Below, piece by piece: positions 1 through 57,874 of a stretch of DNA of 64,000 nt. The position numbers were made by a program, and so were the translations under genes. Each line of letters begins with the position of its first letter. Within the stretch, counting starts at the first letter, position 1. The notes below the pieces were generated by a model. The model was not told the origin of the DNA, searched no databases, and worked only from the letters and a program-made list of their open reading frames with translations. Origin of the DNA: a phage; the sequence record OZ346219.1, one strand, 5' to 3'.

Positions 1-2817
<2,817 letters not shown>

Positions 2818-37786: not shown

Positions 37787-37817
37787 TGATTCTCCTAGTT
37801 CGTTTCGGTATGTGTGT

Positions 37818-37846
37818 AGTATAGGGGATCGGTGATCCCCTGTCAA
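37818..37846 (-). promoter_or_regulatory. sigma70-like early promoter cassette with stem-loop (PeSL-like)
   Basis: TTGACA-N17-TATACT; stem-loop ggggatcggtgatcccc. Confidence 0.6.
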
Positions 37847-37854
37847 CAACTTTT

Positions 37855-38166
37855 TTAAAGTTTTTCCATGATAACGGTCATAATTACATCTTCTGCGCGA
37901 GCGGTCAGATTATCAGCGTCAGCATGTGGGCGGTTGGTTGTTACAGAGATAACACCGTTGCGCACTGGTTTGATGTTGATATCAAGATGATCCGCGAAAC
38001 GTTCGCCAGTTACAGAATGAATTTTGGTGTTAAATTCTTTTGCCAGTGCCTTGCGAACTTCACGAATCAGGGTAGCGTTTTTCAGTTGGTTCTCCGCGCT
38101 CATGGTCTTCTTGGTGTTCATGGTTCCGTCGAAGTCAATCATTGGCAGCGTTACGATGTATTTCAT
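37855..38166 (-). CDS. hypothetical protein (103 aa), AKEFN family
   Basis: REVRKALAKEFNTK; start set at MKYIVTLP after leader RBS. Confidence 0.5.
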   Translation of the reverse strand: MKYIVTLPMIDFDGTMNTKKTMSAENQLKNATLIREVRKALAKEFNTKIHSVTGERFADHLDINIKPVRNGVISVTTNRPHADADNLTARAEDVIMTVIMEKL

Positions 38167-38211
38167 TTTTGATTCTCCGTTTAAGAAAGTGTGTTTCGTT
38201 TTGATGTGTGT

Positions 38212-38240
38212 AGTATAGGGGATCACCGATCCCCTGTCAA
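38212..38240 (-). promoter_or_regulatory. sigma70-like early promoter cassette with stem-loop (PeSL-like)
   Basis: TTGACA-N17-TATACT; stem-loop ggggatcaccgatcccc. Confidence 0.6.
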
Positions 38241-38252
38241 CAACTTTTTGAA

Positions 38253-38729
38253 TTATTTTTCTTGATGCTCGCGATCGTACTTTTCGAAATAAAATTCTAC
38301 TGGCTGGTCATGAATTGACAGTAAGCCAAAGCGTTTAGCCGCTCGCAATCCCATATTGCGCTGAATGTACTTCTGGAAGTTCTCGCGTATACACTTACGC
38401 CAGTATTCTAAGCCCATACAGCTTTTATAAAGATTGCATTGCACACACGCCGGATTCATGTTATCAAGTATATCATGTTCCGGTTTATGCATTCCTACAA
38501 CCTTATACTTCCACGATCCATCATCATTACGGGCAATTCGTCCATTTTCATCATAGACTACCTTTGAGCGTCGCAATACTGGTTTGATGTGGTCTGCGTG
38601 CCAGCGATCCCCTAGTTCCTCGCCACAATAGGCACAACGTCCACCATATTTCATTTTCAGGATCTGGCGTTGCTCTTTCTTTGACATTTTTTTAGGTTTA
38701 GGGGCTTTCGCCCCTTCATTATCACACAT
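38253..38729 (-). CDS. HNH endonuclease
   Basis: 158 aa; CAYCG...HADHIKP...CVQCN HNH motif. Confidence 0.65.
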   Translation of the reverse strand: MCDNEGAKAPKPKKMSKKEQRQILKMKYGGRCAYCGEELGDRWHADHIKPVLRRSKVVYDENGRIARNDDGSWKYKVVGMHKPEHDILDNMNPACVQCNLYKSCMGLEYWRKCIRENFQKYIQRNMGLRAAKRFGLLSIHDQPVEFYFEKYDREHQEK

Positions 38730-40224
38730 CGAATACCTCTTTTACTGTATTTGCAGTGGTCTTGTCGTATCGAATACGTTTGATGATCGGGAGAAATAAA
38801 GAGAACTCCGGTTCATCTTCTTTACGTGATTTGCTGCGGATATACCCGTTGCATGTCATCTCAATGACTTTTCCAATCAGGTTATGACGGTCAGCCCATA
38901 ACATTTCTCGGTCGAGTTCATTTCGACGATCGAACGGAATTACACGTTCAGTACCATCATCACCTTTTTCGGTTGTAGTGTCGGTTAATCCCGATCCGGT
39001 GTTAGTCATCATTCGTCCGCACGCACTACGGACAGTAAAACCGCCTACCTTATTGGGGTCTTTACTATGCGGATATACATCAACAATTTCCGCGTCGAAG
39101 TCAATCACTTCTTTAAATTTAACCTGATCTTTACTACGGCGATCTTCAAATACACCATGTAAATTTTTAAGGATAATACCTTCTAAGCCCATGTTGACAT
39201 AACGATGATATACTTCGCGAGCTTCATCGATATTGTTAACTACAGTGTTTTCGATGATCTGAACACGAGGATCGTTAAGTTCTTCAACAATCTGTTTTAG
39301 TTCTTCGAATCGATCTTTATATTGCTTCGTTGCTTTCTCGTTTCCGTAATACACATCACGGTCGATAACATCCCAGACAGTGTAAACAATACATTGGGCT
39401 TCTTCTTTTGGAATAGTTCCTTTCAGTGATTTGTTGAGGATACCATTTCCGGTCTGACGATCTGCAACAACGGATTCTTTTACTGCTTCCGCTACTGGCG
39501 TTAATGGCATTTCCTCTTCTTCAAATATCCATGACAGAGTACCATCATAAACGCTTTCAACGAAGTTCTGCGCTGGTGTTTGCGAAAGGGTAGGCATATA
39601 TACCAATTCCCCATCTAGAACAATTCCACGGCCTCGTAGACGCTCTAAAACCGCAAACAAATCATCAAGCCCTTGATAGGTATTACCTGAGCGGGTATAG
39701 ATTGCTAATGTTTCCCCGTCAATATCAGCCATACCACGAGCGCCATCGCTTTTAAGTTGTGCATACGCCGGATACTTGATATTAGCAATAGTCTTATCAG
39801 AACATGACGATGCAAGGTGGCACGGTTGCTGAGGGATCAGTTTCTTCCATACCTTGTTTGCGGTGGTAGCGGAACAACCGCATTCCAGATCACGATTCAG
39901 GACCATCATTGCAACTTTAGCATCATCCTCTGACAAGCAAGTCAGAGTATCGGTAACTAGCTGTAATGCTGCATTACCAGTTACTTGACGCGTGGCAAGT
40001 TTATTTTTAAAGACCTGTAATGCACCGGATAAAGACAATACAGACGAATAGCGAGATGGTTTATCGTATTTCTTTACGCCAAACGTAACCTGTTTGCAAT
40101 ATGCCAGATAAAAGCATTCTTTCAGCGTTTCATTGCTTGCTGATTCTTTCAGAATCTTTTCTTTCAGCGATGTTTTGTCTGTTGCTGCAAGCTGATTAAT
40201 GATATTAAGAATTGACATTTTCAC
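38722..40224 (-). CDS. 30: ATP-dependent DNA ligase gp30
   Basis: 500 aa; adenylation motif AQLKSDGAR; LDGELVY, GLEGIILK, KFKEVID as in T4 ligase. Confidence 0.92.
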   Translation of the reverse strand: MKMSILNIINQLAATDKTSLKEKILKESASNETLKECFYLAYCKQVTFGVKKYDKPSRYSSVLSLSGALQVFKNKLATRQVTGNAALQLVTDTLTCLSEDDAKVAMMVLNRDLECGCSATTANKVWKKLIPQQPCHLASSCSDKTIANIKYPAYAQLKSDGARGMADIDGETLAIYTRSGNTYQGLDDLFAVLERLRGRGIVLDGELVYMPTLSQTPAQNFVESVYDGTLSWIFEEEEMPLTPVAEAVKESVVADRQTGNGILNKSLKGTIPKEEAQCIVYTVWDVIDRDVYYGNEKATKQYKDRFEELKQIVEELNDPRVQIIENTVVNNIDEAREVYHRYVNMGLEGIILKNLHGVFEDRRSKDQVKFKEVIDFDAEIVDVYPHSKDPNKVGGFTVRSACGRMMTNTGSGLTDTTTEKGDDGTERVIPFDRRNELDREMLWADRHNLIGKVIEMTCNGYIRSKSRKEDEPEFSLFLPIIKRIRYDKTTANTVKEVFDV

Positions 40225-44017: not shown

Positions 44018-45187
44018 TTACCAATCAATCTTATCAGCCGGAATAAGTTTCTTATAATTCCGTAGATAGTAAGTTTTCATTGAATCCAGAATACGGTCAT
44101 AATCAAGACCATCAAATGCAATCATCAGACACATGAAAATATATGCTTGTGCATCACCATGTTTACGTGATTCGATAGTCGCATTTGATGCATATGTCTT
44201 TCTGTCTTCTCCCGCGTGTGCGTTATAAAATTCTGTTGCTGTCGTGAAGGCATTGCGAAGAATAGACCTGAATGCTTCCTCGAATAGCTCGATTCGTTCC
44301 AGTGCTTCCGGTTCGCCTTCATATGCAGCACGCAAATCATCGGTTTCGCTTTCTACGACATAGTAGATCAGGTTATTAGGAAACATCGATGTGTTTTTAA
44401 TGTTATGCACACCAATATACCATTCACTCTTCACTTTGAACATTTGACCGTCTTTAGTGCGTGCAACAATTCCTTCGATACCTTCTGCGGTCCGAACTTC
44501 ATCAAGAATATTGCTAAAACGCGCTGAATCAACCTGTAACGCATTTACCAGATGAGGACGTAGGATTGCGTCAGAAAATAGCATTTGATGCGGTACGTAC
44601 TCTCCTGTGACGTTATGGCGTACATTCAGAAGTGTTAGCGACGGTTCAGAATATTCTACAACAATTCGGTTGCTGGGCGCTGTATATTCAAAGTTGAAAG
44701 TATAATCAGACCCAATATCAGCAATCTTAGCGCGTAGATCCGCATACTTCTCTGAATACAGAAGACCGTTTGCTCTCTCTGCCTGGCTTGAGTACAAGGC
44801 CGCTTTAGACTTCAACTGAACATAGCCGTTATCAATGTAGGTGCTTACTAGACTACCGTCCATTTTGTCCATGACCATTTCCACATCTTCCGGCTTAAAG
44901 CGAGCGCGATCATTCTCACCCAAATTAAAAAACTTCTCCATAGGACGAGATGCAATGCGGACAGGTCGGTCTTTATCATCGATTTCAAACATGATCCCGC
45001 GACACTCTAACGCATCTGGTTTATTCCACATTTCCGGTTTGCTCAAGTACAGATAACTAAAAATGCGCATACGGGTTTGCATCGCCGTAATTTCATCTTT
45101 GTAATAGAACGTATCAGATCCGTCACATAGTGCCATCAGATTTTTGAACAATGCTAAAACTTTTTTGTTGTTTTCTTTTGTTGACAT
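44018..45187 (-). CDS. rnlA: RNA ligase 1 (RnlA, gp63)
   Basis: 389 aa; ALECRGIMFE, PVRIASRPMEKFFNL, nucleotidyltransferase KMDGSLV, NFE..AP.NRIV as in T4 RnlA. Confidence 0.92.
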   Translation of the reverse strand: MSTKENNKKVLALFKNLMALCDGSDTFYYKDEITAMQTRMRIFSYLYLSKPEMWNKPDALECRGIMFEIDDKDRPVRIASRPMEKFFNLGENDRARFKPEDVEMVMDKMDGSLVSTYIDNGYVQLKSKAALYSSQAERANGLLYSEKYADLRAKIADIGSDYTFNFEYTAPSNRIVVEYSEPSLTLLNVRHNVTGEYVPHQMLFSDAILRPHLVNALQVDSARFSNILDEVRTAEGIEGIVARTKDGQMFKVKSEWYIGVHNIKNTSMFPNNLIYYVVESETDDLRAAYEGEPEALERIELFEEAFRSILRNAFTTATEFYNAHAGEDRKTYASNATIESRKHGDAQAYIFMCLMIAFDGLDYDRILDSMKTYYLRNYKKLIPADKIDW

Positions 45188-45584
45188 AATTTGTGTTCCA
45201 TTCTGGTTTAAATTTGGTGATCAAAACAGGTTCTTCGATATCGGCAGTGCTTATAATATCCTTACCCGTTGGATTCTCAATATATAACTCAAAGCACTGG
45301 CGGTAATAGAATGTTACTGTCTTACCTTCCTCTAGCGCCTTATGAATATTCTTACTCTTGCGAGTATCCGCTGTTGGTGTTTGTCTGTTAATGCTAGTCC
45401 GGTAATAATTGATCCGCTTTCTGAGATTGACAGTCTGACCAATATATACCAGTTCATCATCAACAACAATAGCGTAAAGAACATTTAAACGGTTCTTCTG
45501 AGGCGGCAGAATCACATCACCATCTTTACACTCTAAACATGAATATTTAACGAATCCATAGTTTTCTATTAGCTCATTAATCAT
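45123..45584 (-). CDS. denA: endonuclease II (DenA), GIY-YIG family
   Basis: 153 aa; NVLYAIVVDDELVYIGQTVNLRKRINYYRT...EEP as in T4 DenA. Confidence 0.85.
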   Translation of the reverse strand: MINELIENYGFVKYSCLECKDGDVILPPQKNRLNVLYAIVVDDELVYIGQTVNLRKRINYYRTSINRQTPTADTRKSKNIHKALEEGKTVTFYYRQCFELYIENPTGKDIISTADIEEPVLITKFKPEWNTNYVNKRKQQKSFSIVQKSDGTM

Positions 45585-51466: not shown

Positions 51467-52699
51467 TTATACTGCCATTTGAGCGGTGATTGCTGGATGG
51501 CTTTGATAGTTGTGAATTTTAAAGTCTTTCGGAGTCTTTGTCAATACCTCATCTAAAGATTTAAATTCCGGCAACTCAATCGTTGGTTTATCAAACGGAA
51601 CACGGCTTAACTGTTCCATAACTTGATCAAAATGGTTTTTGTAAATGTGAGTATCTCCACCAGAGAAAATCAGTTCTCCTACCTCAAGATCACACATTTT
51701 CGCTATGATGTGAGTTAACAGCGCATAGCTGGCGACGTTAAAGGGCAAGCCTAAAAAGCTGTCTACGCTTCTCTGAAACCACATACAAGACAGTTTACCT
51801 TCATTGACGTAGAATTGCACGAAAGGATGACATACACCCAATACAGCATTATGTGTTCCTTGTACGTTCCATGAGTCAATAATGATCCGGCGATCCGTTG
51901 GATTGTTTTTAATTTGTTCAATCACGTTTTGTAACTGGTCTTCCCAAATCTTCGGGCGATAGACATATTCTTCATCGTCTTTAGTGCTCGATGTGTCTAC
52001 GTCCATACTAGCAAAGATCGTGGTATCTGGTGCTAAAATATCCCCACCCAGATAATCACTATCAAGCAGATAACCGAAATAACCATCATCTACCCATTCC
52101 TGGAATCCCCACAAGCAATATGCATCATTAACAAAATTAGATTGAGTCTTCCAGTGGTCTGCTACTAAGAATAGATTATACTCAGAATCAAACTCTTCAT
52201 AACGCATACCACGCCAGATAGCACATAAACGGTCTTCTGTTTCATTGGTTGGCGTAAAGTCTTCTACCCACGGGTGCTTAAATGTATGTGCATATTTGCT
52301 CTTAACGCGCTTAATTTTGATTTCACCGTGTGGATGAATCGGTTTGCGTCGCCATGCCATACCATACATATTGCCGACATTATAACCATTGAATCGCAAA
52401 GGATTCTTTTCTTTCATATCAAGACAGTTGCCGCGCCAAATGTCGAAGGCTTCTTCGTCAAACTTACCGCGTGTAATTTCCTGTAAGCGACGGCGGTCAA
52501 GTGATCCCTCCATAAACCATAGCAATTCGCCAATTACAGAGGCTGTAGCCATCTTTTTAGTGGTTAGTAAGGGGAAACCCTTGCTTAAATCAATTCGCAT
52601 CTCTGCGCCGAATTTAGAGAGCGTACCTACCCCCGTGCGGTCTTCACGAGGCCAGCCATTATCAAGAACATCACGCAATAGTTTCAAATATTCTTTCAT
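51467..52699 (-). CDS. td: thymidylate synthase with ~120-aa internal insertion
   Basis: 410 aa; DRTGVGT, RRIIIDSWN, catalytic CH, FQRSVDSFLGLPFNVASYALL, GGDTHIY match ThyA; extra segment between WRR and DQLQNVI. Confidence 0.85.
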   Translation of the reverse strand: MKEYLKLLRDVLDNGWPREDRTGVGTLSKFGAEMRIDLSKGFPLLTTKKMATASVIGELLWFMEGSLDRRRLQEITRGKFDEEAFDIWRGNCLDMKEKNPLRFNGYNVGNMYGMAWRRKPIHPHGEIKIKRVKSKYAHTFKHPWVEDFTPTNETEDRLCAIWRGMRYEEFDSEYNLFLVADHWKTQSNFVNDAYCLWGFQEWVDDGYFGYLLDSDYLGGDILAPDTTIFASMDVDTSSTKDDEEYVYRPKIWEDQLQNVIEQIKNNPTDRRIIIDSWNVQGTHNAVLGVCHPFVQFYVNEGKLSCMWFQRSVDSFLGLPFNVASYALLTHIIAKMCDLEVGELIFSGGDTHIYKNHFDQVMEQLSRVPFDKPTIELPEFKSLDEVLTKTPKDFKIHNYQSHPAITAQMAV

Positions 52700-53979: not shown

Positions 53980-54007
53980 ATTATACACTATTGCGTTACG
54001 CTGTCAA
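53980..54007 (-). promoter_or_regulatory. sigma70-like early promoter cassette (PeSL-like)
   Basis: TTGACA-N16-TATAAT. Confidence 0.5.
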
Positions 54008-55180
54008 CTCTTTTTCAAAAGATTTTACAATATACATGATAGTGCTCAATTCAGACGGCGCTACTGTCTCTGTGTAGCCGTCCGGCATATCTTCTTTTGA
54101 GATATAGGAAGTTTTACCTTTCATAGCTTCCTTGATCTTGTTCTCTAATTCTAAGATCTTTTGACCATCTTGTAAAGTCAATTCATAAAAGATCTCGTGG
54201 TCGAACTGAGATTTACTGCTTTGTTGTTTTAGTCTTTTGGTGGTATTAGAATTTGTGACCCCAAATTTTACCCCGATTAATAAATGCTCTTTTATTAATT
54301 TTTGAATATACAGAGTTCCTTTTTTTAATGGATTGTACCCATATTTTGCACATTTAGGACATCGAGTTCCGTTCTGAAAATCAGTTATTCTAGGACTAAA
54401 TCCATGTCCATGATCACATAACAACTTTAATCTTGTATTCACACCTTTCCATTCATCTACAAAACCATTACATGTTATATTTTCTTCAACGAAAATTGGT
54501 TTAAGTCTTTCAAGATATTCTTCTTTTGAACGAGCATAGTTTTTTGCACACTTAAAACAACGTCTTCCCGCTTGAAAACTAGATATAATTGGATTAAATT
54601 CATGACCATACTCACACAATAAATTCATTTTTGTTTTGTTGCCGTTCCATTCACCAATAAATCCGTTAAAAATTATGTTCTCTTTTATGAAAATTGGTTT
54701 AAATCTTTCAAGATATTCTTCTTTTGATAAAGCATAATTATGTGCGCATTTAGGACATCGAGTCCCTCTCCGAAAATTTGTTATTGTCGGTGCAAATTCG
54801 TGTCCTTCACAACACACTAAATCTAACTTTGTGAATACACCTTTCCATTCATCTACAAAACCATTACATGTTATATTTTCTTCAACGAAAATTGGTTTAA
54901 GTCTTTCAAGATATTCTTCTTTTGATAAGGAATAATTATGTGCGCATCTAGGGCAACGTTTACCTTTTTGAAAATCTGATATTCTTGGTGTAAATTCATG
55001 TCCTTCACAACACACCAAACCCAATTTTGTTACGTTGCCTTTCCACTCACCAACAAATCCATTAAATACGATATTTTCTTTTTCGAAAATTGGTTTAAGT
55101 CTTTCGTAATATTCCGTAGGACTAATCGAGTTGTATTTTTTCTTAACCCATTCAATCTCATGAGCTTGACGTACTAACAT
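53996..55180 (-). CDS. four-repeat zinc-finger protein with T5orf172/GIY-YIG-like C-terminal domain
   Basis: 394 aa; 4 x ~66-aa repeats (SKEEYLERLKPIF.EENI.CNGFVDEWKG..TKL.L.C..GHEF.P.I..F..G.RCPKCA.NY); C-terminal GTLYIQKL...IGVKFGVTN...TKRLKQ. Confidence 0.6.
   Translation of the reverse strand: MLVRQAHEIEWVKKKYNSISPTEYYERLKPIFEKENIVFNGFVGEWKGNVTKLGLVCCEGHEFTPRISDFQKGKRCPRCAHNYSLSKEEYLERLKPIFVEENITCNGFVDEWKGVFTKLDLVCCEGHEFAPTITNFRRGTRCPKCAHNYALSKEEYLERFKPIFIKENIIFNGFIGEWNGNKTKMNLLCEYGHEFNPIISSFQAGRRCFKCAKNYARSKEEYLERLKPIFVEENITCNGFVDEWKGVNTRLKLLCDHGHGFSPRITDFQNGTRCPKCAKYGYNPLKKGTLYIQKLIKEHLLIGVKFGVTNSNTTKRLKQQSSKSQFDHEIFYELTLQDGQKILELENKIKEAMKGKTSYISKEDMPDGYTETVAPSELSTIMYIVKSFEKELTA
54325..55126 (-). 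repeat. four tandem ~200-bp coding repeats
   Basis: recurring gaaaattggtttaagtctttcaagatattcttcttttga near 54490, 54700, 54890, 55085. Confidence 0.7.
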
Positions 55181-55209
55181 ATTTTATCCTCCGTTGTTTC
55201 GATGTGTGC

Positions 55210-55237
55210 ATTATACATTACAGCATCAGCATGTCAA
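55210..55237 (-). promoter_or_regulatory. sigma70-like early promoter cassette (PeSL-like)
   Basis: TTGACA-N16-TATAAT. Confidence 0.5.
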
Positions 55238-55262
55238 TACATTTTCATAAAATTTTAGGCAA

Positions 55263-55289
55263 TAAAAAAAGCCTCCCCGAAGGAAGGCT
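55263..55289 (-). terminator. rho-independent terminator (leftward) after gene 32
   Basis: A-run + agcctccccgaaggaaggct. Confidence 0.55.
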
Positions 55290-55299
55290 TTAAAATTCA

Positions 55300-56274
55300 T
55301 TACATCCCTAACAGAGCGTCAAGATCATCCAGATCAGAAGCGGAGGAAGTACCGCCACCCAGGTCCAGAGATGCCATCAGATCATCAGCGGAAGAATCTA
55401 ACGCCGTGCTAGCTGCGTTAATACCAACTACAGTGCTAGCTGCGGTAGTACCAGCGTCGAATGCATTCATCTGTGCGTCAAAATCATCAAGCTGGCTGTT
55501 AATCGCTGCCGCAGCACTGGAAGCCGCCGCACCAGCTACCATAGAAACGCCCATAGTTTTCTTAAATTTGGTTTCCAGTTCATCGAACGGTTTAAACTGG
55601 CTAGGCGCTACAATCTCACTCAGATCAACCATGTTTTCCATCAGATATTTCTGATATGCTTCGTCTTCAATTTTCGGAAGCTGTGATTGCTGCATGAAAC
55701 GAGAATCGTCATAGTTCTGGTGTTTATCAACCTTCTTAGCTTTCAGGAGGAAGTTAGCACCGGAGAACACACAAGTTACATCTACCGGAACTTCGCCCAT
55801 GTCGGTATTCACGTTCACCATTGCAACGATCTTATCATAAATTTTCTGACCGAAGCGGAATTTGAATACCTTACCTTCATTTTCTGGTGCTTGAGGATCT
55901 TTCAGTACCAGAATATTTGCGTAGTAAGAGGCTTTACGCTTAATCAGTTGCCATTCTGTTTTATCGGTATTGTACAGGTCTTTTTCGTTAATATATTTGC
56001 ACACAGGGCAAGAATCAAAATCACCGTGGGTGCTTGAGCAGTTTTCCCAATACCATTTACCATTAACTTTGAAGGAATGGTTTACCAGTTTCACAATCGG
56101 CAGACCGTCTTCTGTCTTAGACGGCAGGAAGCGAATCAGGGCTTCACCGTTACCTGCTGCATCAGTCTTAATCTTCCACTCTTTCGGATCTTCTTTGGAG
56201 AAACCGTTGCCACCTTTCAGTGCGGCCAGTTGAGCTTGCAGTTTGGAAGAATCTTGACGACGAAACATGTTCAT
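55300..56274 (-). CDS. 32: single-stranded DNA-binding protein gp32
   Basis: 324 aa; [49 protein letters not shown], acidic C-terminus as in T4 gp32. Confidence 0.93.
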
Positions 56275-56334
56275 AATTATACCTCTTTATACATTAACTA
56301 TTGATTAATTTACGTTTTATACTATATCAGATAC

Positions 56335-56931
56335 TTAATTGCTTGTCAATACTTTATCAATTATATCTAACAGTTTTGGCTTTCTATTTTCAAATTCTAA
56401 CATCTCTTCGGGAGAAATGTCAACTACTTCTGTTTTGTTGAAAAAGTTTGGGTCTATAGCATCAGCAACAAAGTTTCTCGCAAGTGCTGCCGCTTTCTCA
56501 TGGACATATATTCCCAAATATATCAACTTCTTTCTTTCGACCTGAATATTGGCAACATATTTACCATCTCGTTTATAAAGACTAACACCGATATATTCAG
56601 ACGATCGACCTTTCTGTTTACCCATATTTCTTGAGTTTTGTTGCTCGTTCGCATCTCTCAAGTTTTCAATCCGATTATCTGTTATAATTCGGTTAACATG
56701 GTCAACGTATTTTGGCATGTATCCATGATGCATAAAGAAAATTATTCTATGCTCTTTATGATGTTTACCATCGATACACACCAATCTGTATCCATGACTA
56801 GGATTAACTCCACCCGCTCTAGATCCGACTTTATGCTTTCGGTTTGTCGATATCTTGCGAATCAGCTTACCGTTATCATATTTAAAGAGTTCATGACAAC
56901 GAGCATACAATTCAGGATCATATGTTTTCAC
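56335..56931 (-). CDS. HNH homing-endonuclease-like protein with AP2 DNA-binding domain
   Basis: 198 aa; HHKEHRIIFFMHHGYMPKYVDHVNR...DNRIENL (HNH) and EYIGVSLYKRDGKYVANIQ (AP2-like). Confidence 0.65.
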   Translation of the reverse strand: MKTYDPELYARCHELFKYDNGKLIRKISTNRKHKVGSRAGGVNPSHGYRLVCIDGKHHKEHRIIFFMHHGYMPKYVDHVNRIITDNRIENLRDANEQQNSRNMGKQKGRSSEYIGVSLYKRDGKYVANIQVERKKLIYLGIYVHEKAAALARNFVADAIDPNFFNKTEVVDISPEEMLEFENRKPKLLDIIDKVLTSN

Positions 56932-57595
56932 CTTTTAACCTCGATATTTCTTTACACTCTTTAACTACTTTAACAAATAATGCTCTTGCTTTTGCGGCGT
57001 CAATAACAAGTAGTTTCTTGTACGCCTTCATTTTAACACTATAAGTTTGCCAAATCAAGTCTTTGGCTACCTTGTCGTGTTCGTCGATTATATTTAGAAA
57101 GCTATCTAACAACATAAACGACTCAAACGATATAATCCGATTTTGCAGTAGTTTAAAGATACCGCTAGTTTCGGTTGCGGGATTGTATGTAATTAGCTCT
57201 TTAAGAGTAACCCCGCGTTTCTCGGAGAAGTATACCAGACTTTTAATGTCATCGTCAAATCGTGTTGCTGCATCGGTTATCTTTCCTATGTATTCCATAT
57301 AAAAGCCGTATGCGTCAACATCAGTGATTTCACCTACCCATGCATCGGTATTAGCTACCAGATTGCTTAGGAATAGGAAGTATAATTCTCTTAGATTGTA
57401 CTTTTCCGCTAATTTCGCGAAATAATACTTATCTCTGCGTTTATTGAATGCGGCATCAGATAACCGCATCCTCCAATTGTATTTTACGCAATCATAACGC
57501 CCGTTCATATGAGCTTTCATCATGCAATATAACATATACACAGATTTAGCATTAATTCGCATATCTGGATCTGGAGGAAGACGGTTTCTGATCAT
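56918..57595 (-). CDS. 59: helicase loader gp59
   Basis: 225 aa; KSVY.LY.M.K.HMNG.YD..KYNW.MR.SDAA..KRRDKY.F.KL, FISNLVAN.DAW as in T4 gp59. Confidence 0.9.
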   Translation of the reverse strand: MIRNRLPPDPDMRINAKSVYMLYCMMKAHMNGRYDCVKYNWRMRLSDAAFNKRRDKYYFAKLAEKYNLRELYFLFLSNLVANTDAWVGEITDVDAYGFYMEYIGKITDAATRFDDDIKSLVYFSEKRGVTLKELITYNPATETSGIFKLLQNRIISFESFMLLDSFLNIIDEHDKVAKDLIWQTYSVKMKAYKKLLVIDAAKARALFVKVVKECKEISRLKGENI

Positions 57596-57604
57596 ACATA
57601 CCCC

Positions 57605-57874
57605 TTAAATATCGAGAGTGTTGGTCGGTTCGTCGATCACTCCCTTCCTGAGCGTTCTATTTACTATACATTCTTGTGTGATCTTGTCAATAATGGACAC
57701 CGGAATATATTTCTGATAGTGACAATATTCTATAGAGTTTTCCTCTACAAACTGAGTTGTCGCTTCAAGATAAGTCAATCCCTCTTCAACAACCAGTTTT
57801 TCGATTGCAAGACCGTTTGCTGTTTTATTCGCGGCTTTTACCGCATGTTCATTAAGCATTGAACACCCGATCAT
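57605..57874 (-). CDS. 33: late transcription co-activator gp33
   Basis: 89 aa; IEKLV.E.G..YLEATT.F.EENSI, C-terminal NTLD as in T4 gp33. Confidence 0.75.
   Translation of the reverse strand: MIGCSMLNEHAVKAANKTANGLAIEKLVVEEGLTYLEATTQFVEENSIEYCHYQKYIPVSIIDKITQECIVNRTLRKGVIDEPTNTLDI

Follow-up and report, generated by a model that had tools for sequence, protein, structure and literature searches.

The locus described here raises the question of whether the additional open reading frame between gene 59 and gene 32 of a T4-type phage is a mobile gene and, if so, which DNA it would use as its target. The DNA analysed, hereafter called the window, is a stretch of 64,000 nucleotides whose sequence places its source in Krischvirus, that is, among the RB49/JSE-like T4-type coliphages. 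The window region is 97-99% identical to Krischvirus genomes (RB49, JSE, Phi1, GEC-3S and many recent isolates), with no record identical to it. On the minus strand the order is gene 59, the additional reading frame and gene 32, with a terminator of gene 32 at 55268-55291; genes 33, dsbA, that of a CYTH protein and rnh lie farther upstream of gene 59 (Table 1). The reading frame encodes an HNH-AP2 protein, a class that has been met before in these phages. A 2006 paper that refers to Magnani et al. 2004 already mentions AP2-HNH mobile elements for RB49 (ORF040c) and RB43 (PMC1524935), and an endonuclease census of T4-related genomes has an HNH-AP2 column with one entry for RB49 and two for JSE (PMC2993671). 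RB49 and JSE are both devoid of the 59/32 copy. A search of the literature for a 59/32 insertion in Krischvirus returned nothing specific, and no cleavage-site mapping was found there for the HNH-AP2 class. The 59/32 gene itself is an ordinary, already deposited and annotated member of this described class (RB49-type phages, 2004-2010), and several genomes that carry it label it 'putative HNH homing endonuclease', 'homing endonuclease' or 'HNH endonuclease'.

Table 1. Coordinates of the features discussed in the text (positions in the window).
Feature	Position	Strand	Details
Probable HNH-AP2 free-standing homing endonuclease gene	56335..56931	(-)	198 aa, GTG start, TAA stop at 56335-56337
HNH_3 (I-HmuI-like His-Me finger) nuclease core	56623..56757	(-)	residues about 59-103; Pfam, 30-sequence alignment, I-HmuI 1u3e alignment
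AP2-type DNA-binding domain	56455..56598	(-)	residues about 112-159
C-terminal helix, residues 174-197	56341..56412	(-)	alignment, AF2 secondary structure and blastn
Gene 59 (helicase loader), upstream neighbour	56918..57595	(-)	Pfam T4_Gp59_N 4e-41, T4_Gp59_C 6.5e-29
Gene 32 (ssDNA-binding protein), downstream neighbour	55300..56274	(-)	Pfam gp32 1e-51
Left border	56918..56942	(-)	alignments; discriminating columns 56942, 56941, 56940, 56939, 56931, 56930
Right border and gene 32 promoter	56321..56356	(-)	promoter scan, discriminating columns, GEC-3S annotation
Putative T5orf172-class homing endonuclease	53996..55180	(-)	394 aa; four CapR zinc-finger repeats and MUG113/T5orf172-like C-terminus
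Second, unrelated HNH protein	38253..38729	(-)	158 aa; C32xxC35, D46-H47, C95xxC98-N99
Gene 30 ATP-dependent DNA ligase	38722..40224	(-)	Pfam DNA_ligase_A_M 2.8e-22, PHROG 114 1.4e-141

An earlier sequence-only reading of this DNA had described the product of 56335-56931 as an HNH nuclease joined to an AP2-type segment, and the motifs that it quoted are indeed present. It had also made the two motifs depend on confirmation by profile search. This was obtained for the nuclease, as Pfam HNH_3 (PF13392) scores 43.6 bits over residues 61-101 (E=2.2e-11), well above the gathering score of 24.8. For the second domain the confirmation comes from profile-level homology: with the single sequence, Pfam AP2 (PF00847) matches residues 112-153 significantly (23.4 bits, E=7.4e-5), yet below the curated cut-off of 33.3, while a precomputed PF00847 match is present on several homologues, and the family profile built from a 30-sequence alignment matches the AP2 domains of WRI1 (1.6e-9), TEM1 (3.1e-5) and ERF096 (5e-3). 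The same profile matches the HNH homing endonuclease I-HmuI (PDB 1u3e) at 1.3e-6, with D77-H78 placed on the I-HmuI DH dipeptide and the DH…N…N catalytic residues aligned with the 1u3e motif. Among 5.8 billion proteins searched, 50 homologues were retrieved, for the most part about 160 aa long and 35-49% identical. In the alignment of 30 of them D77, H78, N86, R87, E89, N90, R92 and N102 are invariant and N99 is conserved in at least 90%. The protein also matches PHROG 99 'HNH endonuclease' (1.5e-50). In the AlphaFold2 model (mean pLDDT 92.7) the nuclease core adopts the beta-beta-alpha-metal fold of the HNH_3/I-HmuI type and the AP2 segment forms an antiparallel three-stranded sheet (strands 116-119, 124-131 and 135-142) packed on a single helix (145-159). 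Both domain calls therefore stand, on the strength of Pfam, PHROG, the conserved residues, the profile matches and the model.

What distinguishes the protein from other family members is a C-terminal extension of about 30 residues, dominated by a long helix. Another phage locus as the source of this tail was considered and rejected, given that the corresponding DNA (56300-56470) has blastn matches in the 12 insert-bearing records only. The tail peptide has no Pfam match, the NCBIfam scan gave no match to the protein, and a search of the window for paralogues of either of its two HNH proteins found none. The protein consists, in this order, of an I-HmuI-type HNH_3 nuclease core in which the catalytic residues are intact, an AP2 domain and a lineage-specific C-terminal helix.

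The gene had been thought to interrupt a junction that is contiguous in T4. This comparison has to be corrected: in T4 (NC_000866) segG, a 633-nt gene for a GIY-YIG homing endonuclease, lies between 59 and 32 in the same orientation. Specifically, Table 1 of Edgell et al. 2010 gives 32/59 as the segG insertion site and gene 32 as the target; the gene 32 promoters are embedded in segG, which is one of the promoter-less cassettes (PMC2988022). The appropriate comparison is with Krischvirus genomes that lack the insert, among them JSE, RB49, Phi1 and GEC-3S. The HNH-AP2 protein does not belong to the Seg family, with a BLASTP E value of 11 against T4 SegG and no GIY-YIG match. Since the two proteins are without similarity, the same slot is held by unrelated nuclease families in two genera.

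Within Krischvirus the gene is polymorphic. A megablast of 55200-57700 found 12 records that cover the full query (G2494, MIZ4, MIZ5, Cognac, pEJ01, ELT4, Makalu_002, kvi, Skers, FL20, E26 and 011D4) and about 50 Krischvirus records without its middle ~27%, and tblastn with the HNH-AP2 protein returned the same 12 records, the next best being only about 41% identical. As gp59 is found in 59 Krischvirus records (among roughly 1,870 phage records that have it), the gene is present in about one record in five, so that 12 carriers stand against about 47 non-carriers among records that are about 98% identical. Moreover, the gene is intergenic, oriented like genes 59 and 32 and disrupting neither of them. 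The nearest homologues outside the genus (49% and 43% identity) reside in unrelated phage-like contigs, and not at a 59/32 junction.

To define the insertion, a 2.6-kb region comprising genes 33, 59, the insert and gene 32 was aligned for nine insert-bearing and seven insert-less genomes, base-by-base alignment covering 17 of the roughly 59 Krischvirus genomes. Apart from the insert columns, carriers and non-carriers are separated only at 56930-56942 and 56350-56356, and the borders are identical in all carriers inspected. Flank identity is equal within and between groups (left 0.985/0.987/0.986, right 0.980/0.977/0.976). In addition, presence of the insert and a gene 59 haplotype 330-390 nt away from the border are found in all four possible combinations: RB49 (without) pairs with Cognac and kvi (with), and JSE (without) with the window and G2494 (with). 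The four combinations indicate repeated transfer or recombination, and constant borders together with unlinked flanks mean that the gene sits on freely recombining backgrounds. Such constant borders on recombining backgrounds are what repeated homing would produce, or cassette recombination. The comparison with insert-less relatives, which had been proposed as the way to find the target site, thus yields defined borders and a replaced junction of 24 nt as a candidate homing site.

The insertion brings a net gain of about 570 nt (569 insert columns in the alignment). Insert-less relatives read AAAGAAATATC, then the 24-nt junction TCAATTAAAA(G/A)C(C/A)GAAACAAATAG, then TTGACAAGTAAATTT, and in these genomes the TTGACA that forms the -35 of the gene 32 promoter shares nucleotides with TGA, the stop codon of gp59. 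In carriers the 24 nt are swapped for GAGGTTAAAAGGTGAAAAC…(ORF)…ATAAAGTA(T), again running into TTGACA. On the left side the insert recodes the gp59 tail from SQLK(A/T)ETNS* to SRLKGENI* with the gp59 frame preserved, and insert-linked substitutions create a GAGG Shine-Dalgarno sequence (56939-56942) 7 nt before the GTG (56929-56931); the last 14 nt of gene 59 are shared with the HNH-AP2 reading frame. On the right side, where the last insert-linked differences are those at 56350-56356, the stop codon falls within the spacer of the gene 32 promoter (TTGACA at 56344-56349, a 17-nt spacer, TATAGT at 56321-56326; an 11/12 match with TG before the -10), whose homologue is annotated in GEC-3S. Because the reading frame ends inside the -35/spacer region of this promoter, both essential neighbours stay functional.

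No obvious promoter of the gene's own was found immediately upstream of it. A second site, strong and sigma-70-like, is present inside the 3' tail of the endonuclease gene (56394-56423, minus strand, TTGACA-18-TAGAAT, 11 of 12 positions matched, with a TG preceding the -10). It lies some 120 nt ahead of gene 32 and is reminiscent of T4 segG with its embedded promoters of gene 32. RNA structures that hide the ribosome-binding site have been reported for several T4 endonucleases. Here this arrangement was tried and rejected, with 81- and 121-nt folds around the start no stabler than shuffled sequences (z = -0.23 and +0.60). An Rfam scan of the gene 32 leader and junction gave only weak sub-threshold matches, all at the gene 32 terminator.

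The two forms in which the gene occurs give further indications on its function. Allele A is found in the window and nine others and allele B in E26 and 011D4, with 85% amino acid identity between them; they are nearly identical over 105 nt at the start and ~100 nt at the end and have diverged in the middle, mostly at residues 36-56, a beta-hairpin that precedes the nuclease, and 125-147, which correspond to AP2 strands 2-3. Near-identical ends around a divergent middle show recombination within the gene, a process that is possible also without active homing. Between the alleles dN/dS is 0.146 (dS 0.71); the nuclease core taken alone gives 0.13 and the hairpin patch 0.34. The reading frame is intact in 10 of the 10 inspected. 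Consequently, the protein is under purifying selection.

Alternatively, the gene might no longer move, being either a lineage-fixed relic or the gene of a DNA-binding protein that has been domesticated, such as an AP2-type regulator at the gene 32 promoter, with its patchy distribution due to ordinary recombination and loss. This reading draws on the end of the reading frame lying in the gene 32 promoter, on the additional promoter-like site in its 3' end, on the variant gene 32 promoter and leader that accompany allele A, and on one database record in which the protein is labelled transcriptional regulator. However, the catalytic residues D77, H78, N90, N99 and N102 are conserved, the nuclease core is itself among the regions under purifying selection, the borders are the same in every carrier despite the unlinked flanks, and the 'Fis family' label is unsupported in the Pfam and NCBIfam scans. 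We consider a relic or a regulator highly improbable.

By contrast, the interpretation of 56335-56931 as a free-standing HNH-AP2 homing endonuclease gene in the 59/32 slot of Krischvirus is, on the comparative data, very probably correct. The behaviour foreseen in the sequence-only reading is borne out by polymorphism at one locus among ~98% identical genomes, with clean borders and unlinked flanks. The mechanism that we propose would start with the gene being read from the gene 59 transcript, its translation coupled to that of gene 59. In a mixed infection, the enzyme would bind DNA through its AP2 domain and the N-terminal beta-hairpin and would nick or cut the intact 59/32 junction in the genome that lacks the insert, in the manner of the nicking enzymes I-HmuI, MobA and MobE, possibly within or beside TCAATTAAAAGCCGAAACAAATAG. 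The lesion would then be repaired by the T4-type recombination machinery from the insert-bearing genome and the gene thereby copied in, while carriers would be immune as the insertion itself destroys the target site.

The choice of the junction as the target is an inference from the alleles. Since the genomes with allele B otherwise equal the insert-less ones, any sequence-based immunity of carriers would lie in the replaced 24 nt, and it is because immunity would be confined to these 24 nt that the uninterrupted junction is proposed as the homing target. For the characterised free-standing endonucleases of T4, however, the distance between gene and cleavage site usually amounts to hundreds or thousands of bp (PMC2988022), so that the 59/32 junction may not be the target. 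An active homing endonuclease of the SegG kind would cut at a distance, inside gene 32 or 59, and long co-conversion tracts would carry the gene along; SegG, which occupies the same slot and targets gene 32, is itself a precedent (PMC2988022). Nevertheless, allele B (E26, 011D4) differs from insert-less genomes only in the 24-nt junction, and no insert-linked substitution is found elsewhere in the 2.6 kb over genes 33, 59 and 32. A distant target would be present in the carrier as well and would lead to self-cutting, unless immunity comes from a source other than sequence. Cutting at a distance is for us an unlikely alternative to cutting at the junction. As to the recognition of the junction, AP2 domains reportedly favour GC-rich sites (PMC10448857). 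The insert-less junction (in the GEC-3S locus, for instance, at about 1425-1450) contains GCCG (AAAAGCCGAAAC) in 6 of the 7 aligned genomes and ACAG in JSE. The GCCG is a weak lead for a putative AP2 recognition site.

The divergence between alleles A and B may bear on specificity too. In AtERF1 the AP2 strands presumably contact the DNA, and it is on this assumption that residues 125-147 are read as a contact surface; the two diverged patches are candidates for specificity differences between the alleles. On the gene 32 side, allele A comes with a distinct version of the promoter spacer, the -10 and the leader, in which an insertion of 15 nt is among the differences. Two forms of the segment made up of gene 32 promoter, leader and first codons (56257-56349, minus strand) exist, MNMFRRQ… and MFKRQ…, the window form accompanying allele A. 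The proximal half of the window form, part of the leader included, is also seen in the insert-less ELT3 and phiS, where either incomplete co-conversion or loss of the insert could have produced it. A broader reading would be that 59/32 is a recurrent landing pad, colonised independently by SegG in T4 and by HNH-AP2 in Krischvirus, with A and B diverged at their DNA-contact surfaces; this we put forward tentatively, as rather unlikely. Divergence at contact surfaces would imply that different junction or promoter variants are recognised and that the alleles compete for one slot. If the landing-pad reading were true, allele A, importing its own gene 32 promoter and leader, would alter the expression of an essential gene.

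A different picture emerges for the HNH protein beside the ligase, which had been presented, alongside the 59/32 gene, as a further nuclease-type element. The protein is a genuine HNH protein, unrelated to the first: CAYCG…HADHIKP…CVQCN, with the CxxC…DH…CxxC-N pattern, is visible in the translation, Pfam HNH (PF01844) is passed with 27.0 bits (cut-off 21.4), and PHROG 2118 matches at 1.3e-54. An NCBIfam scan gave only a far sub-threshold retron-HNH match (16.7 bits against 52.2). The gene overlaps the ligase stop by 8 nt and corresponds to RB49p212/RB49ORF212c, listed among putative mobile elements in 2006 (PMC1524935). It might be a second homing endonuclease, with the ligase locus as a second mobile site, considering that its HNH motif is canonical and has the CxxC…CxxC zinc site, and considering the ~40% identical homologues annotated 'homing endonuclease' in some unrelated phages. 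T4 is not known to have such an HNH gene at the ligase position, which would count in the same direction. Yet the gene occupies the same ligase-overlapping position at 95-99% identity in 59 of the 59 Krischvirus records, and the homologue carried by HK225, which has nin-region genes as neighbours, gives no indication of being mobile. With the gene in every Krischvirus record and no empty site, there is no evidence of current mobility; what stands of the earlier claim is the protein and its overlap with the 3' side of the ligase gene, and mobility we judge distinctly unlikely. The position of the HK225 homologue, in the nin region and not by the terminase, also led to the rejection of a terminase-associated HNH as its identity. 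Downstream of this gene (37800-38250; 1100-2460 of the RB49 locus) is a stretch that varies between Krischvirus genomes: most relatives have there an extra 1.1-1.7 kb of small ORFs, absent from the window and from kaaroe.

The earlier count of at least four nuclease-type elements in the window, namely the two HNH proteins, an intein and DenA, is compatible with the domain matches and overlooked one element. Specifically, in the large terminase (gp17) ORF at 1-2817, plus strand, a LAGLIDADG_3 match at residues 364-422, ahead of Terminase_6N, is consistent with the candidate intein; the ORF runs off the window start and is more than 300 aa longer than expected. The ORF 45123-45584 has a borderline GIY-YIG match and is consistent with DenA. 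The element missed is 53996-55180, directly downstream of gene 32, which matches PHROG 681 'endonuclease'. Its CapR and T5orf172 architecture corresponds to the T5orf172 class of homing endonucleases described by Barth et al. 2023 (PMC10448857). The slot differs between Krischvirus genomes, and within the phage collection the best identity to the window copy is only 69%. With the HNH-AP2 gene on one side and this gene on the other, gene 32 is flanked by two putative homing nucleases. A side observation concerns the thymidylate synthase (51467-52699, minus strand, 410 aa), whose Pfam match is split by an in-frame insertion of ~130 residues (roughly residues 120-250) with no Pfam match; the td of JSE is also long, at 408 aa.

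The main value of these results is a clean annotation, in which the identity of the reading frame is fixed, the comparison with T4 is corrected, and a polymorphic homing-endonuclease candidate is separated from a genus-fixed HNH gene. The outcome is a concrete 24-nt candidate homing site, and natural pairs of carriers and non-carriers, such as kvi with kaaroe, could offer an uncomplicated setting in which to study HNH-AP2 homing. The parallel with segG in the same slot illustrates convergent colonisation around gene 32.

Among known systems, T4 SegG (gene 32.1) is similar in the 59/32 slot, in orientation, in being a free-standing cassette and in having gene 32 promoter elements in or abutting its 3' end. 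It differs in being a GIY-YIG enzyme that cuts in gene 32, away from its insertion site, whereas the HNH-AP2 sequence data point to the junction. T4 MobA-MobE likewise come from HNH genes that are free-standing and intergenic in T4-type phages, but have other C-terminal DNA-binding regions with no AP2, and orthology to the HNH-AP2 protein was not detected. In I-HmuI, DNA binding is said in its structure paper to be operated by NUMOD and helix-turn-helix modules, not by AP2. Unlike the 59/32 gene, this HNH nicking endonuclease of Bacillus phage SPO1 (PDB 1u3e) is intron-encoded. The HNH-AP2 class known from phages, cyanobacteria and ciliates (Magnani et al. 2004) shares the order HNH_3 then AP2, a similar size and variable presence; what sets the present gene apart is the 59/32 locus, an identity of ~40% to the Krischvirus paralogues elsewhere and the extra C-terminal helix of ~30 residues. 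RB49ORF040c and the HNH-AP2 copies of JSE, RB43 and RB16 are similar in belonging to the same phage genus and in their variable presence (PMC1524935; PMC2993671, Table 5). Finally, IPA-HNH of ICP1 (Barth et al. 2023) also joins an N-terminal HNH to a C-terminal AP2 and occurs near essential replication and structural genes (PMC10448857), but its nuclease domains are too divergent for Pfam HNH_3, for which the 59/32 protein scores well above threshold.
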